Below, piece by piece: positions 2,219-59,685 of a stretch of 64,000 nucleotides of DNA. The translations under genes were made by a program, and so were the position numbers. Source of the stretch: an uncultured Candidatus Saccharibacteria bacterium (lineage in GTDB: Bacteria > Patescibacteriota > Minisyncoccia > Phycocordibacterales > EsbW-18); NCBI GenBank assembly GCA_964447415.1, contig CAYUSN010000001.1, positions 185,727 to 249,726 of the forward strand, in the 5' to 3' direction. The notes below the pieces were generated by a model, which saw only the letters and a program-made list of their open reading frames with translations, did not search any database and had not been told where the DNA came from. Position 1 is the stretch's first letter. Every line of letters begins with the position of its first letter.

Positions 2219-2321
2219 CCCAGCACTTATTTTGCTGAATATCGGAAAAAAAATTTTTCGTGCAGGTTTTTCATACTTCTCTGAATTGATACACAGAGAA
2301 AAATGCAAAATAAGTGCTGGG
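2219..2321. promoter_or_regulatory. Palindromic element A: 17-bp inverted arms (cccagcacttattttgc / gcaaaataagtgctggg) flanking ~68 nt; member of the CCAGCAC hairpin family; right arm abuts the tmRNA 5' end
   Basis: Perfect inverted repeat read directly; fills the smpB-ssrA spacer. Confidence 0.5.
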
Positions 2322-2704
2322 GGGATGCCTCGTTTCGACAATGTGATGACTGTGGTACGTGCGTTATGGAAGGGTGTCGCCTTCCTTAAAACGACACACA
2401 CATAACTGCAAAATCAGCAGTACAAAGTCCGTACTTTACAGCACGTGACTTCGCGTTCGCTCTTGCATAAAGACGCCTCGCGACATCTCGTTCGTCCCTG
2501 ATTGAGGGGCGGATGACGGTGTAAACCATTCAATCTTACGAACAGCGGACTGACTCCGACGCGGTTCGGACACTAAGCGGATCTGGCGCGCTTTCGTTTC
2601 GCACATCTTTTAGTGAGCGCGTGAGACTTCAAGATGACGCTAGATAACGTAGATTCGTACAACATCGCATATTGGACGTGGTTTCAACACCACCATCTCC
2701 ACCA
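2321..2704 (+). ncRNA. ssrA: tmRNA (transfer-messenger RNA, SsrA)
   Basis: 5' GGGGATG pairs with 3' CATCTCC followed by A-CCA (encoded CCA), including G3:U identity pair for Ala charging; T-arm-like GGTTTCAACACC before acceptor 3' strand; internal tag ORF GCA AAA ... CTT GCA TAA (predicted tag AKSAVQSPYFTARDFAFALA) ~87 nt from 5' end; adjacent to smpB; followed by intrinsic terminator. Confidence 0.8.
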
Positions 2705-2715
2705 TAAACAGAAAA

Positions 2716-2737
2716 AACCGCCTTCGGGCGGTTTTTT
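2716..2737 (+). terminator. Rho-independent terminator (accgccttcgggcggtttttt) after tmRNA
   Basis: GC stem with UUCG-like loop followed by T-run. Confidence 0.75.
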
Positions 2738-2799
2738 CGTTGACTTTTGGCGAACCAGGGACTAGAGTCTCACGCAGGTAACTTCCCAGAGGAGGGAGC

Positions 2800-3060
2800 A
2801 TGTTCCAAACCATCCTGTTGTGGGTAGGTGGGCTCGGCATCGGCATCTTCGCGTGGCTTCTGATGGAGCTGTACACCCCAGACTGGGTTTCCGACCGTGT
2901 GCTCGCAATCATCGCGGTCATCGTCTGGGTCGTGGTGGTGTGGTTCCAGCAGACCTCGGGAGCTCCACTCGGCGGATTCCTCGTGGTCTCCGGCATCTGC
3001 TGGTTCCTCGACCTGCTCGCGGGACTTTCGATATTTGTCATCGTCGGGGGCGATGACTAA
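2800..3060 (+). CDS. Small integral membrane protein (2-3 TM), hypothetical
   Basis: 86-aa ORF, GGAGGGA SD 6 nt upstream of ATG, hydrophobic segments; followed by hairpin terminator 3078-3113. Confidence 0.45.
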   Translation: MFQTILLWVGGLGIGIFAWLLMELYTPDWVSDRVLAIIAVIVWVVVVWFQQTSGAPLGGFLVVSGICWFLDLLAGLSIFVIVGGDD

Positions 3061-3158
3061 CCAGCGCAGTCCGCGTGCCGCGCCCGCCTTCGTACGAAGG
3101 CGGGCGCGTTTCATTTTCTCTTTATTCTTTTCGGTGCTCCCTATATACTGTACGGACT

Positions 3159-5069
3159 ATGACGGATTCTCCCCGCAAAAGAGGGCCCGGACAGGGCATG
3201 CCGAAAATACCGCTTACGCCGAAGCGTTCATTTTGGACGAATGTCGGCTTCACTATTCTTCTGTTTTTACTTCTGTCGCTTCTGTACTCGGGCTTTTCAG
3301 ATATACAAAAGTCGGAAGAAATTCCCGTGTCACGCCTTGCCGCTGATGTGGTTGCGGGTACGGTGACGACAATTACCGTGCGCGGAGACAAGCTTGAAGT
3401 TACGTATACCGATGAGACGGTAAAACTTTCACAGAAAGAAACAGACGTATCGCTTGCCGAGACGCTTGCTTCATACGGTGTGACGCAGGAACAACTCGCA
3501 AGCACGTCTATTGCGATACAAAGCGAATCAGGGTTCTGGTATTGGATGCTTAATCTCGCGCCGATTATTATTCCGGTGCTGTTTATTGTATTTCTCATCT
3601 GGATGCTCTCACGGCAGGTAAAAGGTGCGGGTATGCAGGCGCTGAACTTCGGACAGTCGCGTGCGCGGTTCTTTGACCCGAAGGATAAACAAAAAGTGAC
3701 GTTCAAAGACGTTGCGGGTGTCAAAGAAGCGAAAGAAGAACTGCTTGAAATCGTGGACTTCCTCAAAAATCCGAAAAAGTTTCTCAAAATCGGCGCGCAG
3801 ATTCCGAAGGGCGTGCTGTTGATGGGTTCTCCGGGGACGGGGAAGACCCTGTTGGCGCGCGCGGTTGCAGGCGAAGCCAATGTGCCGTTTTTCTCCATCT
3901 CAGGTTCTGAGTTTGTGGAGATGTTTGTCGGTGTGGGCGCGTCGCGCGTGCGCGACTTGTTTCAGACGGTCAAAAAGGCCGCGCCCGCCATCATTTTTAT
4001 AGACGAGATTGACGCGGTCGGTCGCGTGCGCGGTGCGGGACTGGGAGGCGGCAACGACGAGCGCGAACAGACACTCAACCAGATTCTTGTGGAGATGGAC
4101 GGGTTTGAACCGCATCAGGAAGTCATTGTGATGGCGGCGACAAACCGTCCCGATGTGCTGGACCCGGCGCTGTTGCGCCCCGGACGCTTTGACCGGCGCG
4201 TACGCTTGGATTTGCCCGACCGCGCGGACCGCGAGGCGATTCTTGCCGTGCACTCAAAAGAAAAACCGCTCGCCGAAGACGTGAATCTCAAAGTGGTTGC
4301 GGAGCGTACGCCCGGATTCTCAGGGGCTGACCTGCAGTCGCTTACCAATGAAGCGGCGATTTTGGCGGCACGCGAAAACCGCAGTAAGGTGTCGCAATTT
4401 GATTTGGTGCGCTCCATTGAAAAAGTAATGCTCGGACCGGAACGCAGAAGCCACATTCTCTCTGAACGCGAGAAAAAAATCACTGCATACCACGAAGCGG
4501 GACATGCACTCGTTGCATCCGTCCTGCCGAATGCCGACCCGATACATAAAGTATCCATCATCGCGCGCGGCCACGCCGGCGGCTACACGCTCTCGTTGCC
4601 GCTTGAAGAGAAGCGTCTGCTTTCCAAAAAAGAATTCGTCGATCGTTTGGCGATGATTCTTGGCGGATACGCTGCTGAGCAGGAAATTTTCGGCGATGTG
4701 ACAACGGGTCCGTCCAATGATTTACAGGTAGCAAGTGCTCTTGCGCGCGACATGGTTGCTCGCTACGGCATGTCGAAAAAAGTCGGGCCGGTGGCGTTCC
4801 ATGATGACGAAGTACACGCGGCTGCAGGCGGTATGATTGTAGAGGGCAAGGAGTACTCGGAGAAAGTCGCGGCTCTTATTGACGAAGAGGTCCGTGAGTT
4901 TGTGGACACCGCGCTTTCGGAGGCGACGGCAGTTCTCAAAAAACACCGTCCGGCGCTCGAGGCGATTGTGGCGCACTTGCTTGAGAAAGAAACCATCGAG
5001 CAAATCGAGTTTGAGGCGCTTTTGCGCGCGCACGGGATTGCCGTGAAAAGCGTGGAGAAGAAGGTATAA
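3159..5069 (+). CDS. ftsH: ATP-dependent zinc metalloprotease FtsH
   Basis: N-terminal TM helices, AAA+ Walker A GSPGTGKT, Walker [12 protein letters not shown], zinc motif HEAGHAL; start moved to MTDSPRKRG (ORF-track start overlaps upstream terminator hairpin). Confidence 0.9.
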
Positions 5070-5103
5070 TAAGTCTCATATTATTTCATAACCTAAATAC
5101 CCT

Positions 5104-5454
5104 ATGTTTGAAATCTTTAAAAGACGAAGTGATGAAGGAATTACCGCAAAAGATGTAGTACCCGAAATTGCAACACCGCAGGAGCCGGTACGGGCAGAAG
5201 GCGAACGTTTCGGACGCATTAAGGCGGGTATAGAAAAAATTATGGAAGACGGGCCCGGTTTTTCAGTGCAAGACATGCTCGGGCGCCAGGACTTTTTTGC
5301 GGAGAAGCTTGTTGAAAACAAAATACTTTCTCCGCAAGATATCGGATTCCCCGGAATTATGAATGAAATTGTAGAAGCTGCCCGTGAAGTTTCTAAAGGG
5401 GGTGTTGAAAGTGTTGGCCGTGACCCGAACTGGAAAAAGGAAAAATCCGCGTAG
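5104..5454 (+). CDS. Hypothetical protein
   Basis: 116-aa ORF directly after ftsH; no recognisable motifs. Confidence 0.4.
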   Translation: MFEIFKRRSDEGITAKDVVPEIATPQEPVRAEGERFGRIKAGIEKIMEDGPGFSVQDMLGRQDFFAEKLVENKILSPQDIGFPGIMNEIVEAAREVSKGGVESVGRDPNWKKEKSA

Positions 5455-5525
5455 TTATTGACTTTTTTGGAACAATCTGGTACATTTGCAACCAGTAGCG
5501 GTACCTTACCCTCATGAGGTGAACT

Positions 5526-5789
5526 ATGGCTCTCGGTGCCAAATCGGACCGTCGTGGCCTTCACCTTGTGAAGGCCGGCAGTTTCCTGCTCCAAAACCCG
5601 TTGTCGCCGGATGCCCAGAAGGTTCGAAGGGCACTCAACCGGTTCGGCGTTACCACGGAGGACATGCGCCAAGCATATCTCGTTCTTCTCGAACTGGATT
5701 GCCTGCCGGACGGATCGGCGGAACGGTTCCTTTTCGGAGGTCTTCGCGAACTCGAAGAGAGAGCCGGTGGCCACATCGTGGAGCTCTGA
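5526..5789 (+). CDS. Hypothetical protein (GC-rich ORFan)
   Basis: 87-aa ORF with GAGGTGA SD; high GC3 codon usage distinct from flanking genes; preferred over overlapping Arg/Ser-rich 5486..5809 frame. Confidence 0.35.
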   Translation: MALGAKSDRRGLHLVKAGSFLLQNPLSPDAQKVRRALNRFGVTTEDMRQAYLVLLELDCLPDGSAERFLFGGLRELEERAGGHIVEL

Positions 5790-5842
5790 GGAGCTCCGAC
5801 ACGCAGTAAAGCAGGCGATTCCATCGCCTGCTGCATCATTTC

Positions 5843-6157
5843 ATGACCACCCCTAAAAAATTTCAACGCACAAAGGAGGACTTCACCTGCGGAGAGTGCG
5901 GTTTTTTTGTACACGGAAACGGATACACCAACCACTGCCCGAAATGTCTCTGGAGCAAACATGTGGACGTGCGTCCCGGTGATCGGCGTGCAACATGCCA
6001 CGGACTTATGGAACCCGTCAGTGTGGAACTCCGCGGAGGAGACCATGTGATTGTACACCGATGTGTCCGCTGCGGTTTTGAAAAACGAAACAAGACGGAA
6101 AAGGGTGATGATTTCAACGTCATCGTGCAGCTTTCAAGCAACCCGACAAAACACTAA
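5843..6157 (+). CDS. RNHCP-domain zinc-ribbon protein
   Basis: CGECG...NHCPKC...CVRCG Cys clusters matching the RNHCP domain signature. Confidence 0.6.
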   Translation: MTTPKKFQRTKEDFTCGECGFFVHGNGYTNHCPKCLWSKHVDVRPGDRRATCHGLMEPVSVELRGGDHVIVHRCVRCGFEKRNKTEKGDDFNVIVQLSSNPTKH

Positions 6158-6159
6158 TA

Positions 6160-7347
6160 CTAGTGTGCCTCCGCTTGTATGATGCGGTCCAGTGCTACAA
6201 GCGCGGAGATGTTGTGCTGTACGTAGTCAATGCGGATGTCGTACTCATCAAGACTTTCGTGAAATCCGCCGAAGCCCGCGCGCGCGGCGTTTAGCTCACG
6301 GAGTTTTTGTCCGGTGAACTGCGTCTTTATTTGAAATACAGCGGCACTTTCCATGGCAAAGCGCGCGGCGGCGGCGTAGAGGTCGTCGCCGTTTCTTTTG
6401 AAAATATAATATGCGGCGCCGAGTCCTTCCGCGCGCGTGGCGGTCGGTGTGGAGCGCGGAGGATTGTAAAATCCGCCGTTCCAGTCACGTTGATCACCCG
6501 TTTTTCCCGAGTGCTGGGTCGAGAGGATAGATTCGGCGGTCCGTTTTGCGTGCGTGAAATAGAGGTCTTCCGGCTGATGCGCGTACAGTTCATTGAGTGC
6601 GTAGAGAAGCCAGTGGTCGTGGATGAGATCTTTCGTCGGCACGTCTTTGTCGCGCACTTCAATGAGCCAATGTGCGCCGAGATGCGCCGCGTCAATCCAC
6701 TGTTCGTCGCCGTCCACCGCATAGAGGCGCGCAAGCGCGAACAGCGCCTCGCCCGGATAGTATTCCGATTCAAAATCGGTGCGCGCGCCGGTGTCCGCGG
6801 TGATTTTATGCACCGAAAACTCGCCGTTGTGTGTTTGTACGTTCGTCAGGAATGTCGCAAGTTTTTGTGCAAGCGATACGTACTCCGATGCGGCATCCGG
6901 CGCGCCGAGAGCGCGCATCAGCGCGGCGTACTTGGAGAGCGCAAGCACCGCAAGCGCATTACCGCCGAGTTTTATTTCATTGTCTTCTTCAACGCACAGC
7001 GCGTCGGACATGCCGGGACACTCAACCACATGGTCGGTGAGAAATACCAACGCGCGCTCCGCCGCCCGCAGATACTTTTGTTTACCGGTCGCTTCGTAGA
7101 GTTCAAGAAGCGCGTAGGTCGTGCCCGCGTGACGAAGGATGTTGTATGAAGAGGAAGTTTTTCCGGTGACGGGATTGTACTGATACACAAACGAACCGTC
7201 AGTATTCGTGTGGCGTACGAGATAGTCGCCACCGAGTTGTGCTGATCTCAAGTAGGTACTCTCACGCGCGGAAAACCACCACACACCTGCAGAAAGCAGG
7301 AGAACGCCGACAACAATCAGTGCTATACCACGCTGTTTTTTCATCAT
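6160..7347 (-). CDS. Membrane-anchored prenyltransferase/squalene-cyclase-like alpha/alpha-toroid repeat protein
   Basis: N-terminal TM anchor (IALIVVGVLLLSAGVWWF); repeated TDGSF / HNGEF / GDQRDWNGGF motifs typical of terpene cyclase/prenyltransferase repeats; start moved to MMKKQ so as not to overlap the adjacent tRNA. Confidence 0.55.
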   Translation of the reverse strand: MMKKQRGIALIVVGVLLLSAGVWWFSARESTYLRSAQLGGDYLVRHTNTDGSFVYQYNPVTGKTSSSYNILRHAGTTYALLELYEATGKQKYLRAAERALVFLTDHVVECPGMSDALCVEEDNEIKLGGNALAVLALSKYAALMRALGAPDAASEYVSLAQKLATFLTNVQTHNGEFSVHKITADTGARTDFESEYYPGEALFALARLYAVDGDEQWIDAAHLGAHWLIEVRDKDVPTKDLIHDHWLLYALNELYAHQPEDLYFTHAKRTAESILSTQHSGKTGDQRDWNGGFYNPPRSTPTATRAEGLGAAYYIFKRNGDDLYAAAARFAMESAAVFQIKTQFTGQKLRELNAARAGFGGFHESLDEYDIRIDYVQHNISALVALDRIIQAEAH

Positions 7348-7352
7348 ATATG

Positions 7353-7424
7353 TGGGCATGCTAGGATTCGAACCTAGAACCGGCCGTGTATAAGACGGCT
7401 GCTCTACCGTTGAGCTACATGCCC
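7353..7424 (-). tRNA. tRNA with anticodon UAU (AUA-decoding isoleucine-type tRNA)
   Basis: Manual fold of reverse strand: acceptor GGGCATG/CATGCCC, D-arm GCTC-AACGGTA-GAGC, anticodon stem GCCGT/ACGGC with loop CTTATAC (U33-UAU-A37), T-arm CTAGG-TTCGAAT-CCTAG, discriminator A; CCA not encoded. Confidence 0.65.
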
Positions 7425-7480
7425 GAAGATACCTACGTCATTGTGATATCGCCGGCACTTAATTGCAACTTGAGAGGCGC

Positions 7481-7508
7481 AAAAAATCCCCAGGTATCGG
7501 GGATTTTT
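7481..7508. terminator. Bidirectional intrinsic terminator (aaaaatccccaggtatcggggatttttt)
   Basis: Stem flanked by A-run and T-run. Confidence 0.6.
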
Positions 7509-7511
7509 TGT

Positions 7512-7661: not shown

Positions 7662-7684
7662 CCCAGCACTTTAACAAAGTGCTG
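7662..7684. promoter_or_regulatory. Palindromic element B (ccagcacttt-aac-aaagtgctgg) upstream of the ECF sigma factor gene
   Basis: Perfect 10-bp inverted repeat with CCAGCAC core, 64 nt before the sigma-factor ATG. Confidence 0.45.
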
Positions 7685-7747
7685 GACACGCGACCTTTCT
7701 GTTCCCATTCTAGCGTAACCTTTGTACAATAGGAACACATTCTCCAT

Positions 7748-8290: not shown

Positions 8291-9653
8291 CGAACGCACC
8301 ACAGCAGAAAACAGTCTCGAAAAAATCTCCGTAGAACGTCTCTCCGGAGAAGAGCGGGAGCACCTGTGGAGCTCCGTTACAACGGCGCACGCGCGTACCC
8401 CGCGCGTCATCCCATCCCCGTACAGCGGATGGATTATCAGCAGAGTTACTCATTCATATTCTATGATTACAGCAGCAATTGCACTTATGCTCGCGCTTTC
8501 AGCGGGAGCAACCGTAGTCGCCGCGGACGATTCCCGTCCCGGTGACGCATTATTCGCTATCGACCGCGCAACGGAAAATATTCGTATTGTGTTTGCGGGC
8601 GACGACAAAAAAGATGAACTCCGTGTCCGTTTTGCAGAAGAACGGGCGGCGGAAGTTGAATCCATTATTGATGAAGAAGGGGAGCGCGTGCGGCTCTCCA
8701 TGGAGGTTCGGGCAAAATCCTCCGGTGATGCTGCGCCCGAAGCGGCGCTGATGGCGGTTTCCTCAGATGACAGCGATGATACATCTGGCGACAATGATGA
8801 TCGCGACGACTCAGATGACGATGGCGATTCAGATGATGACGGCAACGAGCGCATTGCAAACGGTCTCTCGGTTGCAATCGGCTATCTCACGGAAGTATCA
8901 GCGGAGCTTGAAGCAAAAGGAAACATACAGGCAAAAGAGTCGGTTGACGCGGTTATTGCGCGCCTGAACTCAAAAATCGGTGAGATACCGGAAGAACTCC
9001 GTGTTCGTCTGCGGCTCGACAACGACGGTGATGACGACAAGATTCGTGTTCGCGTACGCACCGAAGGAGAAGGTGATGATGACGACGACGTCGAGGTTCG
9101 CGGAGACGGCGTACGGACGAAGGTGGAGTTCAGGAACGGTGAAATCAGAATTGAAAGCAGGATGGATGACGATTCAGACGATGACTCAGATGATGACGAT
9201 TCCTCAAGTGCCGAACTTGAAATTGAAGCGGACGTGTTCACCGACAAGACAATCGTCAAAGTTGAACGCAACGGTATTAAAGAACTCTTTACCACGACGG
9301 CAAAAACTCGCGCAGAGGTTGTGGCGGCAATTGCCGTGAAGTTCGGTATGACCGAAGCAGAAGTTGATGCGGTGCTTGATTTTGAAATTGAAAATCGCGC
9401 AAGTGTCCAAAATGATCTGTTCTTCTCCGGTTCAAGCGAAAGCGGTTCCGACGACAACAATACCGATGATTCTGAGGGAAGCAAGAGCGGCTCGGGGAGC
9501 GGACTTGGAGGCGGTCTTCTCGGAGGATTGCTCGGTGATGATTCAGATGACGATTCGGATGACGATGACGACTCAGATGATGATTCCGACGATGATGATG
9601 ACGATGATGACGATTTGGATGACGACGATGATGATGAAGAAGACGACGACTAA
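8283..9653 (+). CDS. Anti-sigma-factor-like single-pass membrane protein with extremely acidic poly-Asp/Ser extracytoplasmic domain
   Basis: Translationally coupled to the ECF sigma gene (ATGCGTAA overlap). Charged N-terminus, TM helix ITAAIALMLALSAGATVVAA, then repeated DDSDDD tracts and C-terminal run DDDSDDDDDDDDDLDDDDDDEEDDD. Confidence 0.5.
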   Translation: MRNERTTAENSLEKISVERLSGEEREHLWSSVTTAHARTPRVIPSPYSGWIISRVTHSYSMITAAIALMLALSAGATVVAADDSRPGDALFAIDRATENIRIVFAGDDKKDELRVRFAEERAAEVESIIDEEGERVRLSMEVRAKSSGDAAPEAALMAVSSDDSDDTSGDNDDRDDSDDDGDSDDDGNERIANGLSVAIGYLTEVSAELEAKGNIQAKESVDAVIARLNSKIGEIPEELRVRLRLDNDGDDDKIRVRVRTEGEGDDDDDVEVRGDGVRTKVEFRNGEIRIESRMDDDSDDDSDDDDSSSAELEIEADVFTDKTIVKVERNGIKELFTTTAKTRAEVVAAIAVKFGMTEAEVDAVLDFEIENRASVQNDLFFSGSSESGSDDNNTDDSEGSKSGSGSGLGGGLLGGLLGDDSDDDSDDDDDSDDDSDDDDDDDDDLDDDDDDEEDDD

Positions 9654-9667: not shown

Positions 9668-9709
9668 AAAAACCCTCTCTAGTTCGCGCGAATTAGAGAG
9701 GGTTTTTAT
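9668..9709. terminator. Bidirectional intrinsic terminator (aaaccctctctagttcgcgcgaattagagagggttttt)
   Basis: 11-bp stem between convergent genes with flanking A/T runs. Confidence 0.65.
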
Positions 9710-13007: not shown

Positions 13008-13236
13008 CGCCTCGCTCCGCCGTTTTCCCGCCGGGGGCCTTGTGCCGCCGGCGGTGCTTTATATATTGGCGTTTTTGCTGTCCACCGACTTTCCCCAACG
13101 GCGCAGAAACGGCTTGACAGAGGCGTTTTCACGAATATAATGAGTGCTCCTACAGTGATCAGCAACCCCGTTCCGGTTTTGCTGGGACGGGGTAAAAAAT
13201 TGCGGTAGGGGATGCACGTTGATAATCACATAATTC

Positions 13237-13331
13237 ATCCAGCACTCAATTTGGCACTGTTGTCATGTCGAACGAATGACGCACAACAGTGAATCTACAA
13301 CGAAGAGATAGTGCCAAATTGAGTGCTGGAT
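13237..13331. promoter_or_regulatory. Palindromic element C: 21-bp perfect inverted arms (atccagcactcaatttggcac / gtgccaaattgagtgctggat) flanking 53 nt, upstream of the 16S rRNA gene
   Basis: Read directly; followed by three further strong hairpins (13345-13460) in the rRNA leader region. Confidence 0.5.
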
Positions 13332-13543
13332 AAAAAAGTCGTGCGATGGCCACCGCTGTCGCACGCACAATCAGAGTTAACCGGATAGCAGCCGGAGCAC
13401 TCTGATTAACCCGTCTATGAGAGACAGACCGTAGTACAGTCTGTCTCATCCAAGACAAAATTAAGAACGGAGAAAAAAGCTAATCACATTTTTTCTTTTG
13501 TTCTGCTCAACTAAGTGAAGCATTTATGTTTCACTTTATATGT

Positions 13544-15196
<1,653 letters not shown>

Positions 15197-15365
15197 AGTC
15201 AAATGACAATCGGTATTTGTCTCTCAAGGACAATACTCTAGGCGGTCGATATCGTGCACTGCAATTGAGTGCATGATGGATGCGGCACAGCATCCTTAAA
15301 ACCGTGCCGGGCATCCGGGAAAGACCGGAAAAATGAGCAGAACAAAAGAAAGAACGTGATATAAA

Positions 15366-15398
15366 AACCGCCCCGCGCCTAACGCGCGGGGCGGTTTT
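15366..15398. terminator. Bidirectional intrinsic terminator (aaaaaccgccccgcgcctaacgcgcggggcggtttt)
   Basis: Perfect GC-rich stem flanked by A-run and T-run between 16S and the convergent gene. Confidence 0.7.
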
Positions 15399-16573: not shown

Positions 16574-16772
16574 AGCAAAAAAGTTATGTGGTAAATGACC
16601 TGATTGTTCCTGCACAAAGAGGAATGTAATCGGTGCTTACAGTATATCAAGTGGCTCGTCATGCTGAGGTGCCGGGCGGGGGATAATGAGCGCCCGCAAA
16701 GGTATTGGAAACCACATTCTTGACAAATTCATATAATATGATGTATACTGTACATCAGAAAAGGAGGTTGCC

Positions 16773-17024
16773 ATGAAGGCCACGGTGTCGAACTATGGTC
16801 TGATGTACAGTCCGACGGTGATGGGTGGGCTCGTCTCACTCGAACCGTTCGAGGTCATCGCCAAGGCGGTCGGACCGTGCAACTGCGGGTTCGAGGAACC
16901 CGACAGTCCGCGGATGGGGCACGCATCAAGCTGTCCAACGCAGTACGCGATGATCGAGGTGCAGGGGCACACGATCGTGGTGTACCTGCCCAACATCGAA
17001 ATCATGGAGGAGGTGACCGCATGA
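16773..17024 (+). CDS. Hypothetical small protein (83 aa, Cys/His-containing), GC-rich ORFan
   Basis: Strong AAAAGGAGG SD; stop overlaps downstream ATG (ATGA). Confidence 0.4.
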   Translation: MKATVSNYGLMYSPTVMGGLVSLEPFEVIAKAVGPCNCGFEEPDSPRMGHASSCPTQYAMIEVQGHTIVVYLPNIEIMEEVTA

Positions 17025-20176: not shown

Positions 20177-20279
20177 AATGCCAAGGAGTTGACAAACCAT
20201 TTTAAACTGATATAATACCCACCAGGAAATAGCGCATCGGTCGGATTCAACCGCCGATGAACAAGAGAGGGAGGTCAGT

Positions 20280-20755: not shown

Positions 20756-20802
20756 TATAACCCGCACTTACTTTTGGTACAAAAGTAAGTGCGGGTTATA
20801 GT
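20756..20802 (+). promoter_or_regulatory. Palindromic element F (tataacccgcacttactttt-ggtac-aaaagtaagtgcgggttata) embedded in sigma70-like promoter: -35 TTGGTA, 17-nt spacer = 3' arm, -10 TATAGT
   Basis: Perfect 20-bp inverted repeat; -10 ends ~9 nt before the murC ATG, implying a (near-)leaderless transcript. Confidence 0.5.
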
Positions 20803-34512: not shown

Positions 34513-34540
34513 GTACGCGTCCCGTTAGAGTTCAAAAAGT

Positions 34541-34804
34541 ATGTTTTACGTCTACATAATCAGAAGCAGTACAACGGGTCGTTTGTATACCGGAAGCACA
34601 GGAGACCTACGGAAACGCTTGTATGAGCACAACACTGCGAACAAGCGATCGTGGACAAAAGGTGGCCGTCCGTGGAAAGTCATCTATTATGAAGCATGTT
34701 TAAATGAAGATGACGCGCAGTCGAGAGAAAAATACCTTAAATCTGGACCTGGCAAACGTTTTATCAAAAATCGCATCAAGCGTTTCCTAACTCTAACGGG
34801 ATGA
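34541..34804 (+). CDS. GIY-YIG nuclease-family small protein (UPF0213/YhbQ-like)
   Basis: FYVYIIRSSTTGRLYTGSTGDLRKRLYEH...REKYLKSG matches GIY-YIG catalytic motifs. Confidence 0.75.
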   Translation: MFYVYIIRSSTTGRLYTGSTGDLRKRLYEHNTANKRSWTKGGRPWKVIYYEACLNEDDAQSREKYLKSGPGKRFIKNRIKRFLTLTG

Positions 34805-39303: not shown

Positions 39304-39431
39304 TCCAGCACCTAGTTTGCCGACACCTTTTGTTGTGTTTGTTTCTGCTTAAAAACAAACTACCAGAAACGGTGTCTCTGGAACTTTTGCCAGTTACATA
39401 GTGTAGAAACCTCGGCAAACTAAGTGCTGGA
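39304..39431. promoter_or_regulatory. Palindromic element D: 20-bp arms (tccagcacctagtttgccga / tcggcaaactaagtgctgga, 1 mismatch) flanking ~88 nt; ends 22 nt before next ATG
   Basis: Read directly; GTGCTGG recurs once more at ~39446 just before the ATG. Confidence 0.5.
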
Positions 39432-45983: not shown

Positions 45984-46155
45984 CCCTATTTTCGGCGGAG
46001 TCTCTACCTGTGGTATAGTGTTTTCCGTATGCATCCCGTTAGAGATTACTCACGTATGTTCGTGTCTAATATTCAAAAAATGTCGACATATTGTTCGTGT
46101 GCACACGAGGGTGTGATAACGATGGAAACGCACCGCGTTTCTTATCTCTAACGGG

Positions 46156-48411
46156 ATGAAAAAAACACTTGAACGGGGAATCCTTTTTCTTCTGTTTTTG
46201 ATTCCGTTTGTTCCGTTTGTTGTTGCGCGGTCAATGTATTTCCCGTTTATCACGGGAAAGGCGTTCGCGTTCCGTGTTTTGGTCGGTATCGCACTTGCGC
46301 TCTGGCTTGCGCTTATGGTGTATGACCGGTCGTATGTTCCGAAGAAAAGCCCGGTGTTCTGGTCGGTGCTGCTGTTTTTCGGTGTGGTGGCTCTTGCGGA
46401 TATTTTCGGGGTAAATTTTGAGCGAAGTCTGTGGAGTAATTTTGAGCGCATGGAAGGACTCGTAACGTTTCTATATCTCTGTGCGTTTTTCCTGATGAGC
46501 TCTACGGTGTTAACAAAGACAAATAAGTGGCCGGCATTTTGGAATACGTCAATTGTTGCATCCGTCGGACTCGCATTCTTCGCACTTTTTCAGGTGATGG
46601 GATTTATCGGGATTTCTCAGGGCGGTGCGCGTGTGGATGCAACGCTTGGTAACTCCATCTATCTGGCGGTGTACATGCTCTTTCATATCTTCCTGACGCT
46701 CTGGTTGTTGTATGAAAAGCGCACATCACGTTCGCTCTCGATTTTTTACGCCGTGGCGGTGGTGCTGCAGACAGCGGCGTTGTACTACACCGGAACCCGC
46801 GGCGCGATGCTCGGACTTCTCGGGGGCCTGGGACTCTCAGCACTTCTCGTTGTGTGGCGTGGAAAAGAACACCCGCGGTTGAGAAAAATATCTCTTGGCG
46901 CGATGGTCGCTATTGTACTCGTGGTCGGTTTGTTTGCTTCCATCAAAAATACGCAGTTTGTGCAGGGAAGCGAAATGCTACGGCGTTTTACGAACATTTC
47001 ATTTACTGATGGAACAGTACAATCGCGCCTTGTGTTGTGGAGCGGTGTGGCGCTTCCCGGTTTTTACGAGCGGCCGATTCTCGGATGGGGGCAGGATAAC
47101 TTTATCGTGGTGTTCGGCAAACATTATGATGCGCGCATGTACAAACAGGAACCGTGGTTTGACCGTGCTCACAACGTGTTCTTCGACTGGCTCATTTCCG
47201 CCGGTATTCTCGGACTGCTGTCGTATCTCTCGCTGTTCGGAGTTGCACTTTTTGTGCTTTGGAAAAAATCAGCACATCTCTCTGTTCCTGAACGAAGCTT
47301 AGGTACGGGACTGCTTGCCGGTTACTTTGTGCACAACATTTTTGTGTTCGATAACCTTATCAGCTACATTTTTTTCCTTCTGTTTCTCGGATTTGTCGCA
47401 TCCGCATATGCACGGGAAGAAGGTGGTGCGGAACACAAGGAGACAAAAACAAGGGGTGCAGAGAGCCTTATCTCTGACCCGACACTTCGCAGAACGGCAG
47501 CTATCGGAACTTCTGTTATTGCGCTCGTTGCAATGTATGCAACTACCGTTCCGCACATTCAAGCGTCACAAAACATCATCAAAAGCATCACAGGACTGCA
47601 GGCGGGTGATTTTACGGGACCGCTTGAGCGTTTTGAAGATGCAATAGACGATCCGGTGGCGGACGAAGAGGCGCGGTTTCAGCTAAGCCGCGTTGCCTTT
47701 ACCGTCGCTGCGGCAACGAACCCAGCCGTGACGGAAGAGATAAAACAACAATACCTCCAAAAAACCTTTGAAGAACTCAAAAAAAGCGTCGCGGAAGACC
47801 CGACAAGTACCCGCCCGAAATATTTCCTTGCAACGTTTCACGCGCGCACGGGTAATTTTCCGGAAGCCATCCGCTTGTTCGGGGAACTACTTTCGGTGAA
47901 CCCTGACCGTCAGATATTTTTGAGCGAATACGGTCTTCTTCTTGAGCTGGTCGGTGATACACAGAAGTCAGAAGAAGTGCTGAAACACTTTCTTGAGATT
48001 TCTCCGGAAAGCGATGAGGCGGCAACACGGTACTCCGCGGTATTGTTTGCACATGGAAAAACAGCCGAGGCAAACGGCGTTCTCACGGAGTATACGGGGG
48101 AGATTCTCGGCGATCGCCCGATAGCACTCTCTGCATACCCGCGTCCTGCAAAATTTGAAGATGCGTTGAAAATCACAAGCTTTGAAGTCATGCGCCTCCA
48201 GCTTCGACGCGAGAATGTCGGGTTCGGCGAATACCTGGTGCGTATTCGTGACCTGGCAAACGGTGGAAATAAGACAGAGGCTTTGATTTTGACGGACGAT
48301 GCGGCTGCGTTCTATCCGGAATATACAGATAAAACCGATGCGTTAAAAACAGCGATTCGTGCAGGTAAAGAGATTGCAATTGAAGATCCGTCTTCCGCTC
48401 CGGCAAACTAA
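46156..48411 (+). CDS. O-antigen ligase/polymerase-like (Wzy_C) membrane domain fused to C-terminal TPR repeats
   Basis: N-terminal ~450 aa polytopic membrane domain with the Wzy_C-type large loop; C-terminal TPR-like helical repeats. Confidence 0.7.
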   Translation: MKKTLERGILFLLFLIPFVPFVVARSMYFPFITGKAFAFRVLVGIALALWLALMVYDRSYVPKKSPVFWSVLLFFGVVALADIFGVNFERSLWSNFERMEGLVTFLYLCAFFLMSSTVLTKTNKWPAFWNTSIVASVGLAFFALFQVMGFIGISQGGARVDATLGNSIYLAVYMLFHIFLTLWLLYEKRTSRSLSIFYAVAVVLQTAALYYTGTRGAMLGLLGGLGLSALLVVWRGKEHPRLRKISLGAMVAIVLVVGLFASIKNTQFVQGSEMLRRFTNISFTDGTVQSRLVLWSGVALPGFYERPILGWGQDNFIVVFGKHYDARMYKQEPWFDRAHNVFFDWLISAGILGLLSYLSLFGVALFVLWKKSAHLSVPERSLGTGLLAGYFVHNIFVFDNLISYIFFLLFLGFVASAYAREEGGAEHKETKTRGAESLISDPTLRRTAAIGTSVIALVAMYATTVPHIQASQNIIKSITGLQAGDFTGPLERFEDAIDDPVADEEARFQLSRVAFTVAAATNPAVTEEIKQQYLQKTFEELKKSVAEDPTSTRPKYFLATFHARTGNFPEAIRLFGELLSVNPDRQIFLSEYGLLLELVGDTQKSEEVLKHFLEISPESDEAATRYSAVLFAHGKTAEANGVLTEYTGEILGDRPIALSAYPRPAKFEDALKITSFEVMRLQLRRENVGFGEYLVRIRDLANGGNKTEALILTDDAAAFYPEYTDKTDALKTAIRAGKEIAIEDPSSAPAN

Positions 48412-54277: not shown

Positions 54278-54278
54278 A

Positions 54279-55187: not shown

Positions 55188-55199
55188 GCTTGCTCTCCC

Positions 55200-56192
55200 A
55201 TGGCATTCATCGATGAACTACATTTACACCTGAAGGCGGGCCGCGGCGGCAACGGCGTGGTGCGCTGGCTGCATCTTAAAGGAAAAGACCTGTCCGGCGC
55301 TGCAGGAGGAAACGGCGGACGCGGCGGCGACGTGGTGGCTGAAGGTATCCGCGATATCGGCGCGTTGCTGCGGTATCGTGATCAAAACCACTACGCGGCG
55401 GGCGACGGAGCGCCCGGAGGCAGCCGAAGCAAGGAGGGAAGAAACGGCAAAGATTTTGTATTTAAATTTCCGCTCGGCACGGTAATTTCGCGCACACGAC
55501 TCGGCGAGCGCTGGGAGATTCTTGAAGAAGGACAACGCGAAGTGCTGTTGAAAGGCGGCAACGGCGGATACGGAAACGAGCACTTCAAGGGTTCGCGAAA
55601 CGTCACGCCGATGCAGTCGACGAAAGGAAAGCCCGGAGACGAAGATGATTTTGAAATCGAACTGCAGTTGGTTGTTGATGCGGGACTCATCGGTATGCCG
55701 AATGCGGGGAAGTCGAGTCTGCTCAACGCGCTTACCGGCGCGCATGCAAAAGTCGGCGCGTATGAGTTTACGACGCTCAACCCGAACCTCGGGGTTATAT
55801 ACGGATACGTACTTGCCGATATTCCGGGACTTATTGAGGGTGCGGCGGAAGGACGCGGACTCGGGCATAAATTTTTGCGTCACATCAAGCGCACAAAAAT
55901 GCTCGTCCATTGTGTGTCATTTGAAAATGAAGATTTGGCAGGAGCGTACGCAACAGTGAGAAAGGAACTCTCCAAATACTCCGGAGAGTTGGCGGATAAG
56001 AGCGAGATTGTGTTGCTCACAAAATCAGACATTCTACAACCAGACGAAGTTCCTCAAAAAATAAAGGAATTTTCTGCACAAAGTGGTGTTTCTGAAGACA
56101 TGATTTTTACCGTTTCCATATACGACGATGTGTCGCTGAAGGCATTTTCCGACGCTCTGACAAAGAAAATGGGCGAATTAAAGGAGTGCTAG
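55200..56192 (+). CDS. obg: GTPase Obg
   Basis: Glycine-rich Obg fold N-domain (GGNGGRGGDVV), G1 GMPNAGKSSL, G3 DIPG, G4 TKSD. Confidence 0.9.
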   Translation: MAFIDELHLHLKAGRGGNGVVRWLHLKGKDLSGAAGGNGGRGGDVVAEGIRDIGALLRYRDQNHYAAGDGAPGGSRSKEGRNGKDFVFKFPLGTVISRTRLGERWEILEEGQREVLLKGGNGGYGNEHFKGSRNVTPMQSTKGKPGDEDDFEIELQLVVDAGLIGMPNAGKSSLLNALTGAHAKVGAYEFTTLNPNLGVIYGYVLADIPGLIEGAAEGRGLGHKFLRHIKRTKMLVHCVSFENEDLAGAYATVRKELSKYSGELADKSEIVLLTKSDILQPDEVPQKIKEFSAQSGVSEDMIFTVSIYDDVSLKAFSDALTKKMGELKEC

Positions 56193-56391
56193 TACACGGG
56201 TGTTAGCACGTGGGGTCTGACCCAACACTATACTATTGACACATCACATAAAAAGGTGTATTATATGCATGAAAGTTCTTTGAAAGTTCAGTTGCAAATT
56301 TGACCGTGGTTTTGAGCGCCTTTCAGGCCTTCAAAACCACGGTCAACGAAGACCGATGGTTACTCCGGGCAACAAAGCCCAAGGAGGTAAC

Positions 56392-57006
56392 ATGAGTTTC
56401 TCATTTCTGCTTTTCCTGTTTCTGATCCTGTTGTTGGTGGGAGTGGTCGGGACGACTTTCCTCATTTATTGTGGGGGGTCCAGCGAGCAATCCAAACAGC
56501 AGGATGAGACCTTCAAGGAGTTCACGGTGTCCAATGCCGCCACAACCAAGGAGGACTTCTTCGTCGCGTTCCCCTCGTTGAGAAGGTATCGGCACAAACC
56601 AGAATACGACAACCTAGAATTTTATCTCTGCGATTTATCGAAAGTGAGTCCCTTTATCAGTTTTAATGGAATTTCTCCCAGAGATGCTAAGGGGTTGGTT
56701 GAGCAGAAGGGATTCAGGAACGCAACACCAGAAGAATTCGTCTACTATGTCAAGAAACAAGCCCTTCTTGGGGAGAAGGGGGAGAGCTTCGGTTCTAGCG
56801 TGGTTGCGTTGGGGAAGTATGCCAATCGCACTACGGACTACCACGACACGGGGATTCTCATCTACAGCTGCTTCTATCCAGGAAGATGCTTTATCCAGAA
56901 CTGGGGCTGTAGCATGAATTTCATCCTTTACGGAGGTTTTTCCGTAGACAACACCTTTTTTCTTGGTGTGCGGGAAAAGAAGTCTAAGGAGGAATCATGT
57001 TCCTGA
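56392..57006 (+). CDS. Membrane-anchored hypothetical protein (GC-rich ORFan)
   Basis: AAGGAGG SD; N-terminal TM FLLFLFLILLLVGVVGTTFLIY; start at M13 of ORF 56356..57006. Confidence 0.4.
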   Translation: MSFSFLLFLFLILLLVGVVGTTFLIYCGGSSEQSKQQDETFKEFTVSNAATTKEDFFVAFPSLRRYRHKPEYDNLEFYLCDLSKVSPFISFNGISPRDAKGLVEQKGFRNATPEEFVYYVKKQALLGEKGESFGSSVVALGKYANRTTDYHDTGILIYSCFYPGRCFIQNWGCSMNFILYGGFSVDNTFFLGVREKKSKEESCS

Positions 57007-57563
57007 TCAAGGACGTTCCCGTCGGTCGCCTCAACGCGCTGGTCAAGAAGATCGGCGGGTTGCAGGTGATGGATGGCATTCTCGACGGCACGCTGAAGCT
57101 CACCGTCGAAAAGATCGTCGAGCCCACACCAGCCGACCTCGCTGTTTTCTTCACTACTCGGCCTGGCCTCTTGGTCACCGACGGGTTCTGGCAGCAGATT
57201 CTTGCTCTGGCGCTTGCGATGCCCGAGACGGCACCGGCCTCAGTCGGAGAGCCGTACGACCTTCGGAAGGACATGTACGATACCGAGATTCGTCAGAAAC
57301 TCGGTGAGAACCACATCTTCGAGAATGCCCGCGCGTTTTGTCGCTACCTCCAGAGGGCTCTCTCCGCGCAGTTGGGAGGTACCGAGGGGGACCTGCGCAC
57401 CTTTGGCCACGAGAACATCTTCTATGTTCGTGGCGGGGACGGGGCTGTCTTCGTGGTCTCCGTCAAGTGGAATGCCAATGGCCGAAATTGGTCCATCAGC
57501 GCCGATCATCTGCTCGACGCTGACCGGTGGTACCACGGTACTCGGGCTTTCCCTCGCAACTGA
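56997..57563 (+). CDS. Hypothetical protein (GC-rich ORFan, 188 aa)
   Basis: AAGGAGGA SD; overlaps upstream stop; high GC3; followed by terminator (ccccgcgtggcttttattggcacgcgggggcgtttt, ~57620-57655). Confidence 0.4.
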   Translation: MFLIKDVPVGRLNALVKKIGGLQVMDGILDGTLKLTVEKIVEPTPADLAVFFTTRPGLLVTDGFWQQILALALAMPETAPASVGEPYDLRKDMYDTEIRQKLGENHIFENARAFCRYLQRALSAQLGGTEGDLRTFGHENIFYVRGGDGAVFVVSVKWNANGRNWSISADHLLDADRWYHGTRAFPRN

Positions 57564-57734
57564 TCCTTGAACCCCTGGCATCTTGGCGCTTGCGTCTTGA
57601 TACCTTGGAAATCTTTCGCCCCCGCGTGGCTTTTATTGGCACGCGGGGGCGTTTTCGTATCTGACTTTAAATACAATTCAAAAATAAAGGTTCGACAGGT
57701 ATAATGATTTTGGAGGCTCATCCTTCAAAAATAT

Positions 57735-57785
57735 CATGACATCCTACATACCGACAATTGGACTTGAAATTTTCACCCAGCACTA
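57735..57785 (+). pseudogene. Relic/duplicate of the gatB N-terminus (MTSYIPTIGLEIFTQH*), divergent at synonymous sites from the functional start 90 nt downstream
   Basis: Manual translation: MTSYIPTIGLEI vs functional MTEYKPTIGLEI; nucleotide identity low despite peptide conservation; terminates inside hairpin E. Confidence 0.3.
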
Positions 57786-57804
57786 AAGCGAAGCTTAGTG
57801 CTGG
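57775..57804. promoter_or_regulatory. Palindromic element E (cccagcactaaagc-gaa-gcttagtgctggg) 23 nt upstream of gatB
   Basis: Inverted repeat with CCAGCAC core read directly. Confidence 0.45.
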
Positions 57805-57826
57805 GCAGGCGCAGTAAACCATCATC

Positions 57827-59227
57827 ATGACAGAATATAAACCTACAATAGGGCTCGAGATACACGCGGAGTTGAAAACGCAGACGAAAATGTTCTGCGA
57901 CTCTAAGAATGACCCGGACGAGAAGCGTCCGAACTGGAACGTGTGTCCGGTGTGCATGGCGCACCCCGGCACGCTCCCCGTCATCAACCGCGAGGCGGTG
58001 AAGCACGTGCTCAAAGTCGGCGTTGCCGTCGGCGGTACCATTGCCGACTACACGGAATTTGACCGAAAAAACTATTTTTACCCCGACATTCCAAAAGGGT
58101 ACCAAATCAGTCAGTATGCCTTTCCGCTTGTAACAAAAGGAGAGCTACACGGTATTGCACTTACACGCATTCATCTTGAGGAAGATACCGCGCGCTCTCA
58201 GCACGAGGGTGACCACTCGCTCGTTGATTTTAACCGTGCAGGCGTGCCGCTGATGGAATTGGTTACCGAACCGGTTATCAAGAGTGCAAAAGAGGCGGGG
58301 GATTTCGCACGTGAGCTGCAACTTTTATTGCGGTATCTCGGCGTGTCGGATGCGGACATGGAGAAAGGACATTTGCGCGTGGAGGTGAATATCTCTGTTT
58401 CAAAAGACGGCACACTTGGAACAAAGACGGAAATAAAAAATATCAACTCGTTCCGTGCGGCGGAAAAGGCGATTGAATTTGAAACACAACGGCAGACGGA
58501 GGCGCTTGAAGCGGGAGAGAAAATAGTGCAGGAGACACGCGGATGGGATGATGCGAAAGGAGAAACGTTTTCTCAGCGCGAGAAAGAATCGTCGCACGAT
58601 TACCGTTATTTTCCGGAACCCGATTTACCGAAGCTAAAAATCTCAGAGATTCCGGAATTTTCCGCCGAGGCGCTTAAAAAAGAATTACCGGAACTGCCGT
58701 GGCAGAAACGGGAACGGTATCTTGCACTCGGACTGAAAAAAGAGGACGCGAATATGTTTGTGGGCGACCCCGCATACGGAAACTTTTTTGAACAGGTTGC
58801 GGGAGAGTTGGGCGGTGACCCGAAAAAGATTCTCCTTGCGACTAATTATATTGCAGCTGACCTCGCGGGACTTTTGAAAGGAAACGAGATTTCGTTGTCC
58901 GCGAAATATTTTGCCGAACTCATCGGAATGCTTTCAGACGGTAGCGTATCTTCGCGCGGAGGAAAAGATATTCTTGCACTCATGATTAAAAAAGATGCCT
59001 CCCCGAAAAAGATTGCGGAGAAAGAGGGGTTGTTGCAGCAAAGTGACGAAGGTGCCATCGGTACAATTGTTGATGATGTCATCGCGCAAAACGAGAGTGT
59101 AGTTGCAGAATATAAAAAAGGAAAAGAAGCATCACTGCAGTTTCTTGTGGGGCAGGGCATGAAGCTTTCGAAAGGTTCGGCAAATCCGGGGGTGCTTGCA
59201 AAACTCCTCAAAGAAAAACTTTCATAA
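57827..59227 (+). CDS. gatB: Aspartyl/glutamyl-tRNA(Asn/Gln) amidotransferase subunit B
   Basis: N-terminal PTIGLEIHAELKT, GatB catalytic domain and C-terminal GatB/YqeY domain; terminator (cgccgccaaaagtcttggcggcggttt) follows. Confidence 0.9.
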   Translation: MTEYKPTIGLEIHAELKTQTKMFCDSKNDPDEKRPNWNVCPVCMAHPGTLPVINREAVKHVLKVGVAVGGTIADYTEFDRKNYFYPDIPKGYQISQYAFPLVTKGELHGIALTRIHLEEDTARSQHEGDHSLVDFNRAGVPLMELVTEPVIKSAKEAGDFARELQLLLRYLGVSDADMEKGHLRVEVNISVSKDGTLGTKTEIKNINSFRAAEKAIEFETQRQTEALEAGEKIVQETRGWDDAKGETFSQREKESSHDYRYFPEPDLPKLKISEIPEFSAEALKKELPELPWQKRERYLALGLKKEDANMFVGDPAYGNFFEQVAGELGGDPKKILLATNYIAADLAGLLKGNEISLSAKYFAELIGMLSDGSVSSRGGKDILALMIKKDASPKKIAEKEGLLQQSDEGAIGTIVDDVIAQNESVVAEYKKGKEASLQFLVGQGMKLSKGSANPGVLAKLLKEKLS

Positions 59228-59280
59228 AAACGAACGCCGCCAAAAGTCTTGGCGGCGGTTTCACGCACGGTGCGTGACGG

Positions 59281-59562
59281 TCAGGAGAGGCCGATGACCT
59301 CGTCGGGAATTCCCGAGTTCTTGGCAAACCATGCCGTGAACTCGAAAAAGAGCTCGTCGCTCCGGTCACCCAACAGCACGGAATCGCCGTCCAGCGGCAA
59401 CTCCACCGTCTCCGGCGGCAGACCGTTCTCCCTCACGATGGCCTCGTGTACCTTCTGGGCCATCTTGTTGAACTCGGCCTCGAACTCGGGGTTGACCCCG
59501 AAGAGGCCCATGTCCAGGCGCTTCTCGTAGAGGAACCGCCGGACTTCTCTTAACGTTGTCAT
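59281..59562 (-). CDS. Hypothetical protein (93 aa, GC-rich ORFan)
   Basis: Start moved to MTTLREV within ORF 59281..59619; high GC3. Confidence 0.35.
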   Translation of the reverse strand: MTTLREVRRFLYEKRLDMGLFGVNPEFEAEFNKMAQKVHEAIVRENGLPPETVELPLDGDSVLLGDRSDELFFEFTAWFAKNSGIPDEVIGLS

Positions 59563-59641
59563 GTGTCGTCTCCTATGGAATCCTGGGCGATTATACAACA
59601 ATATACTGCAAGGTGTCAATTATTTATTTGGAGCGTGATTT

Positions 59642-59685
59642 ACCCCGCACTCAACTTTGGAGCAACGTTGAGTGCGGGGTATACT
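59642..59685 (+). promoter_or_regulatory. Palindromic element G (accccgcactcaac-tttggagcaac-gttgagtgcggggt) embedded in sigma70-like promoter: -35 TTGGAG, 17-nt spacer = 3' arm, -10 TATACT
   Basis: Read directly; ~40 nt upstream of gap ATG. Confidence 0.5.

Follow-up and report, generated by a model that had tools for sequence, protein, structure and literature searches.

Single-domain GIY-YIG nucleases of the Ssn group bind a genomic hairpin repeat (NTS/SRM) on single-stranded DNA (ssDNA) only and cut beside the hairpin; the sequence of the stem is read, any loop or added inner stem is tolerated, and the Ssn genes are flanked by the same repeats that lie dispersed in the genome, almost only between genes (Chenal et al. 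2025, PMC11893778). Repetitive extragenic palindromes (REP) carry a GTAG or CGTC tag at one palindrome end (PMC3733652). In the ribosomal RNA (rRNA) genes of the candidate phyla radiation (CPR), all GIY-YIG proteins were reported from insertions that belong to neither the group I nor the group II introns and are unlike homing elements; many short gene-less insertions were left uncharacterised there, inverted repeats, hairpins and palindromes have no occurrence in that report, and copies outside the rRNA genes were not reported (Tsurumaki et al. 2024, PMC11270868). Here we analysed a 64-kb stretch of DNA (contig CAYUSN010000001.1, positions 185,727 to 249,726; hereafter the window) in which seven hairpins, H1 to H7 (Table 1), share the stem base CCMGCAC. 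With a probability of roughly 0.65, we regard these hairpins as gene-less members of a family of GIY-YIG-associated CPR inverted-repeat elements, that is, as non-autonomous or decayed copies. This reading is based on the ends that they share with gene-carrying elements, on the states in which the H3 site is found, on the gene-carrying copies themselves, and on a pair of gene-carrying and gene-less copies of a second family inside the window.

All seven palindromes claimed by the initial annotation were found in the sequence at the named loci, and together they are far beyond chance. We counted CCMGCAC 53 times in the window against 16.8 +/- 4.2 in shuffled sequences, and it forms the stem base in four of the ten longest perfect inverted repeats. 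H1–H7 are all intergenic, in a window whose intergenic share is 9.2% (P about 6e-8), and the folds of all seven are far more stable than those of shuffled sequences (z from -3.7 to -9.3). The core of H1 (2220-2320) runs from CCAGCACTTATTTTGC to GCAAAATAAGTGCTGG. Individual perfection, asserted for every repeat, holds for four of the hairpins, and the other three are only nearly perfect. The inner sequences, described as unrelated, are partly related, as five of the seven arms have CCMGCAC-TYA-(N0-2)-TTTG(G/C) in common; the conserved halves are separated by 9 to 112 nt. The position of every copy directly 5' of a gene start could be confirmed in a weak form, since the distances range from 0 to 207 nt and since H1 and H5 also lie close behind the stop codon of the preceding gene (13 nt after smpB and 1 nt after a glycosyltransferase-like gene, respectively). 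As stated earlier, no trailing U-tract follows any of the seven, and H2 and H3 lie between divergent genes. Canonical U-tract terminators are present elsewhere in the window (9668-9707, 15364-15398, 436-472 and 57617-57651), so the hairpin family is a separate class, and we rejected H1–H7 as intrinsic terminators, in which a G+C-rich stem with a U-tract stands at a gene end. The CCCGCACG stems at 436-472 and 1411-1436 are G+C-rich and were set aside as ordinary U-tract terminators. Rfam returned no known RNA family for the hairpins at either the gathering or the E-value threshold.

The H3 site, in the leader of the 16S gene, was compared in an alignment of nine 16S leaders, and three states were observed. 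The window has H3. In L174 and L176 (loci of the comparison set are numbered with L; RecG of these two is 89% identical to that of the window), the leader is near-identical to that of the window on both sides and the site is empty, reading gttgataactgaat|acaaaaaagtcgt. In L177 (RecG 71% identical), the same flanks, ..attcaT[ ]Ataaaagtcgtgcgatggccacc.. (also written Ataaaagtcgtgcgatggccaccgctgtcgcacgcac), enclose a 300-nt element with a GIY-YIG gene of 85 aa (Pfam PF01541, E = 9e-14). The termini of this element are the 21-bp ATCCAGCACTTAACTTTGCTC and its inverse, and the ends that it shares with H3 are ATCCAGCACTTAACTTTGC and its inverse. At several positions the L177 arms depart from those in the window, yet each pair is perfect, and therefore the two arms changed in concert. 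Similarity extends past the 7-mer, as H1, H3, H4, H5 and H7 match the L177 end (CCAGCACTTAACTTTGC versus CCAGCACTTATTTTGC and CCAGCACTTAGTTTGC). The stop codon TAA of the L177 nuclease falls within the 3' arm (AGT TAA GTGCTGG), which explains the TRA found beside GTGCKGG in those same five hairpins. The closest relative has the empty site and the more distant L177 the filled one; the phyletic pattern at this site is odd. The 16S gene of L177 (5719-8063) spans 2345 nt, of which 745 nt form an insertion near position 736.

Through homologs of the L177 protein we reached further gene-carrying copies, so that the link of these ends to a nuclease gene is seen in three independent genomic contexts. 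In L178–L181, perfect 20-bp ends (TCCAGCACTTAATTCGGGAT and its inverse) enclose the gene between bAvd and the reverse transcriptase of a diversity-generating retroelement, and in L182–L191, which are Moranbacteria-type contigs, perfect 21-bp ends (CCCAGCACCTAACAAGCTTTA and its inverse) do so inside a 23S rRNA gene. Among the three gene-carrying copies the outer CCAGCAC is constant, and the inner arms differ yet remain perfectly paired within each copy; the same pattern, constant outside and variable but paired inside, is found in H1–H7. The full form thus measures about 290-305 bp, with complementary arms starting CCAGCAC(T/C)TAA around a single-domain GIY-YIG gene of 84-85 aa, and in L177 and L178, two of the three full copies, the TRA just inside the terminus is the stop codon of the nuclease gene. 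When 11 elements were compared, outer pairs 1, 2, 4-7 and 10 were invariant, eight of 15 pairs changed on both sides, 96% of cells were paired, and none of 500 shuffles reached either the observed pairing or the observed covariation score, figures that describe a pattern in elements preselected as inverted repeats. A second inner stem lies next to the outer stem in gene-carrying elements, formed by nuclease codons about 24-29 and the last codons; its sequence differs between the two families, and between L177 and L178 the difference is one compensated pair. In L178 (2646-4683), bAvd ends within the 5' arm of the GIY-YIG element, which provides its final three codons and its stop. A scan of viral contigs for full elements with CCAGCACTTAA ends found none.

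The enclosed proteins are single-domain GIY-YIG proteins of 84-87 aa. The Pfam scan was made on the L177 homolog, and the protein encoded in the window was assigned by tblastn with the L177 protein (44% identity) and by a profile. This profile, built from 28 homologs in an alignment headed by the window protein, matched best the solved UPF0213 structures 1ZG2 (3.6e-13) and 1YWL (1.4e-8), and then SLX1. Across the 28 homologs, including the window protein, the catalytic Tyr, Tyr, Arg, His and Glu vary little or not at all, and from these residues the nuclease looks active. The family of the window protein is large, with 7024 relative clusters at E <= 1e-3, mostly of 85-130 aa.

The gene identified by tblastn belongs to a second family, the ends of which are TCCCGTTAGAG. 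These ends are common to one gene-carrying and one gene-less element in the window (Table 1), and the last three bases of the latter are the start codon of a Wzy_C gene. They also occur as hairpins in L067 (labelled Omnitrophota), in L124 (a groundwater metagenome contig) and in L189, the 23S-carrying contig of a Moranbacteria-type GIY-YIG protein. A related hairpin lies inside the 16S gene of the window, where its ends are a compensated variant of the same stem base and nine of its 66 pairs are G.U. At the same 16S position L171 has a gene-less copy (6562-6702; CCCAGCAC / GTGCTGGG), and there was no intron match in Rfam. We also observed that the arms of these two 16S-internal hairpins and of the hairpins in the transfer-messenger RNA (tmRNA) leaders of relatives (L169 8820-8900) consist of similar short units (GCACAAA..TCAAA versus TTTGA..TTTGTGC), one arm being A/C-rich and the other G/U-rich, with many G.U pairs. 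An extra 40-nt hairpin near 16S position 76 (13612-13651) is closed by GCTCAGCAC / GTGCTGAGC and is absent in L171 and L177.

Table 1. Hairpins, elements, inner stems and promoters in the window, with the inner stems of two comparison loci
Feature	Position	Strand	Description
H1	2219-2321		17-bp perfect arms, 69-nt loop; 27 bp at 93% when extended to 2209-2331
H2	7663-7685		minimal hairpin, arms 10, loop 3; CCAGCACTTT-AAC-AAAGTGCTGG
H3	13237-13331		in 16S leader; 22-bp perfect arms, loop 51
H4	20756-20800		CCCGCAC type; 21-bp perfect palindrome, 3-nt loop
H5	39304-39431		20-bp arms with one mismatch, 88-nt loop
H6	57776-57805		short; 11 bp perfect, then one-base bulge
H7	59641-59681		CCCGCAC type, 35-nt hairpin; 15 bp perfect, one mismatch, 3 more pairs
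Full second-family element	34520-34801	+	perfect 13-bp ends TCCCGTTAGAGTT / AACTCTAACGGGA around GIY-YIG gene
GIY-YIG nuclease gene	34541-34804	+	87 aa, single-domain; tblastn with L177 gene product
Gene-less second-family copy	46032-46158		CATCCCGTTAGAGAT ... 97 nt ... ATCTCTAACGGGATG
Hairpin inside 16S gene	14670-14847	+	178 nt; ends CCCTGCAC / GTGCAGGG
Inner stem, window second-family element	34611-34621 / 34777-34787		
Inner stem, L177	8380-8393 / 8539-8552		
Inner stem, L178	3072-3085 / 3228-3241		
Perfect consensus promoter inside smpB	2054-2083	+	upstream of H1 and tmRNA; conserved in L169
Perfect consensus 16S promoter	13114-13141	+	upstream of H3; conserved in relatives
Perfect consensus promoter	20189-20216	+	12/12
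Perfect consensus promoter	59619-59590	-	12/12; next to H7
Promoter-like TTGGAG-17-TATACT	59657-59685	+	overlaps H7 loop and 3' arm; read from sequence

The conserved stem base is best read as the terminus of the element, and this terminus is probably what the nuclease recognises on folded ssDNA, as the precedents of Ssn with NTS and of the REP-associated transposases (RAYT) with REP would suggest. The hairpin would form on single-stranded DNA; the nuclease, by analogy, would read the invariant outer 7 bp and leave the inner stem and the loop free to vary, up to the size of a gene; and a cut beside the hairpin would drive the spread or turnover of the element. Being palindromic, the element also folds in RNA when transcribed, as in H1, H3, H6 and the copies inside rRNA, and this folding may keep insertions in leaders and rRNA harmless or tolerated. 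The position at gene starts mostly reflects a tolerance that is restricted to intergenic DNA. The statement of the initial annotation that the palindromes are not copies of one mobile element is unsupported, because the same ends bracket GIY-YIG genes; its alternative, of REP-like elements under constraint to retain one particular stem base, comes close to what the evidence shows.

Several observations weigh against our reading. We observed no significant similarity between the interiors of H1, H3 and H5 and the gene-carrying copy, and thus descent by deletion is unsupported except through the shared H3 site. No consistent direct repeat that could represent a target-site duplication was found at H1–H7 or at the L177 element (the L178 element has TAAAG on both sides), and the 64-kb window has no gene-carrying copy with CCAGCAC ends. 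The SRM consensus HGTCWYN(0-2)YYVSBRHN(0-5)WNVSBRGN(0-2)RNCYNB has no match in the window, where 0.15 are expected from shuffles, and the nearest solved relatives of the nuclease are UPF0213 proteins, so that the mechanistic analogy to Ssn crosses family lines. The covariation check bore out the concerted arms and is no proof of selection, the elements having been preselected. Finally, H7 is kept together with its promoter-like hexamers in L167, whose GatB is 81% identical to that of the window, and because of this conservation some copies may have a host function.

By mechanistic analogy, Ssn is the nearest precedent. Here too, a small single-domain GIY-YIG nuclease (84-87 aa) has its gene bracketed by a dispersed hairpin repeat, with CCAGCAC ends in L177, L178 and L182 and TCCCGTTAGAG ends in the window, and recognition of a stem with a free loop fits the conserved stem base and variable interior of these elements. 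The two systems differ in architecture, as the Ssn gene is flanked by two complete hairpins whereas here the arms pair across the gene, and also in that the proteins here are nearest to UPF0213 and SLX1-like solved structures and copies occur inside rRNA genes as well. The likeness to REP doublets (REPIN) and RAYT is in the single nuclease gene flanked by inverted repeat copies, in gene-less inverted doublets that form extragenic hairpins, as the intergenic H1–H7 do, and in the two arms of a doublet evolving in concert. However, the enclosed enzyme is a GIY-YIG protein and not an HUH/Y1 transposase; the ends read (TTYAT)CCAGCAC and bear neither GTAG nor CGTC as a tag; an arm taken alone is not a small palindrome; and about 10-17 nt only, rather than the whole unit, are common to the copies. 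With miniature inverted-repeat transposable elements they have in common the terminal inverted repeats shared with a gene-carrying element, although the enclosed gene is not a known transposase.

The copy in L182 is an insertion of the CPR rRNA type, in a 23S gene. H1–H7 differ from such insertions and from intervening sequences in lying in intergenic DNA, outside the rRNA genes, and location within an rRNA gene, together with a stem at the base, was found only for the related copies (window 14670-14847, L171 6562-6702 and L182). Short palindromic insertions that are tolerated beside or within genes, RNA genes included, are also known from Neisseria, as Correia elements, and from Rickettsia, as palindromic elements. 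The ends of Correia elements can provide promoter hexamers, and Correia transcripts form hairpins that are cut by RNase III; the promoter-like hexamers of H4 and H7 and the leader hairpins H1 and H3 resemble this. Both of these families consist of near-identical copies, the Correia elements with a TA duplication, and neither is tied to a GIY-YIG gene.

We then compared the orthologous sites of other genomes. The first comparison set consisted of 160 GatB-anchored loci from GTDB genomes and JGI metagenomes; closer relatives were obtained through the protein database. An identical sequence is found in two Logan assemblies, which are without comparative value; L081 and L082 are the window's own sequence, and L082 likewise has none. 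Save for one distant look-alike in L013, the motif hairpins were absent from the 160 GatB-anchored loci, which at first suggested strict lineage specificity; the gene-carrying copies in other CPR genomes overturned this. In L013, an unrelated genome, two inverted-repeat elements (6230-6340 and 6937-7053, with 20- and 30-bp arms) flank ssb, and since they share the inner block CTCGCCGCCT..GCGGCTCCG they look like another family of hairpin elements. H1, H2, H3 and H6 are missing at the orthologous sites of close relatives. At the place of H1, L169 and L171 have a different and imperfect hairpin, with one A/C-rich and one G/U-rich arm; L171, L172 and L173 have no H2 in the orthologous spacer; and H6 lies within a 1.6-kb stretch (56192-57827) absent from the relatives, in which obg abuts gatB. 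The H7 ortholog in L167 (11811-11855) has the same ends, one compensatory change from C-G to T-A and two broken pairs. Stems containing CCCGCAC that resemble the window's G+C-rich stems at 436-472 and 1411-1436 adjoin the response-regulator genes in L171 and L173.

Rfam placed in the window the tmRNA gene (2321-2704), a 1668-nt 16S gene (13537-15204) with no 23S gene after it, and three transfer RNA (tRNA) genes. Pfam identified smpB, an extracytoplasmic function (ECF) sigma factor, recG, murC, a methyltransferase and gap among the flanking genes, and the gatB product has GatB domains in the precomputed gene table. The relatives of GatB and RecG are Patescibacteria (CPR), the closest named being Candidatus Campbellbacteria, and we place the window in a Campbellbacteria-like CPR genome. 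Four perfect 12/12 promoters of the form TTGACA-N16-18-TATAAT are present in the 64 kb and none in shuffled sequences, from which we concluded that consensus promoters are in use here.

H1 lies 130 nt downstream of the promoter inside smpB, and therefore within a transcribed leader, and its 3' motif abuts tmRNA position +1 (2321). H3 lies 96 nt downstream of the 16S promoter, and H6 is found 22 nt before gatB, after the canonical terminator at 57617-57651 and a 10/12 promoter at 57677-57705. H5 precedes the methyltransferase gene by 22 nt and a TGcTATGAT by 6 nt. Between a tRNA gene on the - strand and the ECF sigma gene on the + strand, H2 stands 17 nt upstream of the -35 of TTCCCA-17-TACAAT, the -10 of which is conserved in relatives. 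H4 is just 5' of murC, and TTGGTA-17-TATAGT (20774-20802) overlaps its loop and 3' arm; H7 is located between the - strand promoter and gap (ATG at 59726). These two hairpins are alike in having TTGG(T/A)(A/G) in the loop and TATAGT or TATACT just past the 3' arm. The hexamers at H7 score 8 of 12, below the threshold of the promoter scan, and they are conserved with their spacing in L167; as judged from the sequence, the element may itself bring a promoter to gap. Both H4 and H7 may have been recruited into promoters.

The motif itself was rejected as a promoter element, since its place relative to the -35 and -10 hexamers varies among the copies, and as an alternative -10, because position 2 is not conserved. 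A boxA antitermination signal was also considered for H2, which holds GCACTTTAACAA (11/12 against the E. coli boxA); H2 is not part of any rRNA leader, and for the 16S leader the likely boxA is found elsewhere, at CGTTGATAA. Around H1, we observed that GAGGCAT behind the smpB stop (2209-2218) pairs with the tmRNA 5' end ATGCCTC (2321-2331), and that this pairing covaries in L169 (8795-8905), where it reads CAAGGCA / TGCCTTG; this points to a leader-acceptor helix conserved in the precursor of tmRNA. Two long palindromes without the motif also adjoin promoters: one (56300-56346) lies 30 nt after the promoter at 56236-56264, and the other (16747-16811) begins within the -10 of that at 16720-16749. 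Outside the window's own sequence, the other loci yielded copies of neither, except that an arm of the latter is matched once, in L099, with a single mismatch.

An alternative is that the hairpins are RNA elements of the host, either leader or rRNA-precursor hairpins that are cut, for example by RNase III, or structures that stabilise transcripts; the stem base would then be a processing determinant, and the GIY-YIG genes would merely have lodged in loops. The place of H1, H3 and H6 downstream of strong promoters agrees with this, as does the fact that relatives retain a tmRNA-leader hairpin of different sequence, that the 16S-leader hairpin of L172 stays paired through G.U (TCAGCATG / CGTGCTGG), and that G.U pairs occur in the 16S-internal copy; stems of ~20 bp also suit RNase III. 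But RNase III is not known to require a fixed 7-bp sequence, the stems of H2 and H6 are only 10-14 bp, and four of the hairpins are absent at the orthologous sites of close relatives, as described above. Moreover, H2 and H7 lie between divergent predicted promoters, upstream of or overlapping that of the downstream gene, and H4 overlaps one, so that transcription of these three is not evident. Nor does this account explain why the same ends flank nuclease genes whichever way these are oriented and in contexts that are unrelated. We therefore consider a host RNA element an improbable account of the family, although a role in RNA may well be a secondary property of the transcribed copies.

The initial annotation favoured a lineage-specific, promoter-proximal site for a regulator or for processing, and operators that coordinate the downstream genes, including a variant of the CIRCE/HrcA type (CIRCE, controlling inverted repeat of chaperone expression), would be one form of it. 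Palindromic sites near promoters are expected of operators; H4 and H7 are of equal length (35 nt) and overlap promoter-like hexamers that in L167 are conserved, and the half-site AGCACTC resembles the CIRCE half-site TTAGCACTC. This proposal is not supported. The ends occur in other CPR genomes as well, including inside a 23S rRNA gene; H1, H3 and H6 are downstream of strong promoters, H2 is upstream, and H4 and H7 overlap theirs. A spacing of the halves from 9 to 112 nt is intolerable for a dimeric regulator and, with the lack of a fixed place among the promoter parts, argues against both a promoter element and an operator. Furthermore, the unconserved inner arms are still perfectly complementary, which a protein reading half-sites does not need, the downstream genes have no common functional theme, and orthologous sites are empty in relatives. 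CIRCE-spaced sites were found neither in the window nor in 172 loci, and a CIRCE/HrcA operator, a 9-bp repeat with a fixed 9-bp spacer, was rejected as the spacing here varies and the downstream genes are not chaperones. Operators are thus very unlikely. Even less credible are paired DNA uptake sequences, as in the inverted hairpin-forming pairs of Neisseria or Haemophilus. CPR bacteria are thought to depend on DNA uptake, and AAGTGCGGG resembles the Haemophilus uptake sequence AAGTGCGGT; however, the extended motif is confined to the palindromes, single genic CCMGCAC sites have no flanking conservation (the preceding A occurs in about 5 of 33, as by chance), and known uptake sequences are far denser. 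Single GTGCGGG / GTGCTGG sites within genes show a strong + strand bias, which is probably a compositional or codon effect, the GC skew of the + strand being positive throughout.

If H1–H7 are gene-less members of the GIY-YIG-associated family, a wider proposal can be put forward, which we hold only tentatively and think rather less probable than not: that this is a previously unrecognised minimal mobile element of the CPR, a 'hairpin transposon' of ~300 bp whose sole gene would encode an 85-aa GIY-YIG nuclease acting on its own folded ssDNA ends. Gene-less copies would be mobilised in trans, and the element would be a source of leader hairpins, of promoter hexamers and of expansion segments in rRNA; a further role may be the gating of incoming ssDNA in natural transformation, as for Ssn in Neisseria.

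CPR bacteria account for much of the diversity of bacteria. For their rRNA insertions, our results point to a common anatomy, in which the ends are conserved as CCAGCAC, the arms vary but pair perfectly, and a second stem lies inside, and the gene-less copies in intergenic DNA would join rRNA insertions, rRNA expansion hairpins and regulatory-looking palindromes as one phenomenon. The principle known from Ssn and NTS, in which a small GIY-YIG nuclease is paired with a hairpin repeat of the genome, would reach another protein lineage and another architecture, and such proteins are possible tools, as new sequence-specific single-strand nucleases. For annotation, the finding calls for caution: conserved palindromes upstream of genes in CPR genomes are not to be taken as operators.

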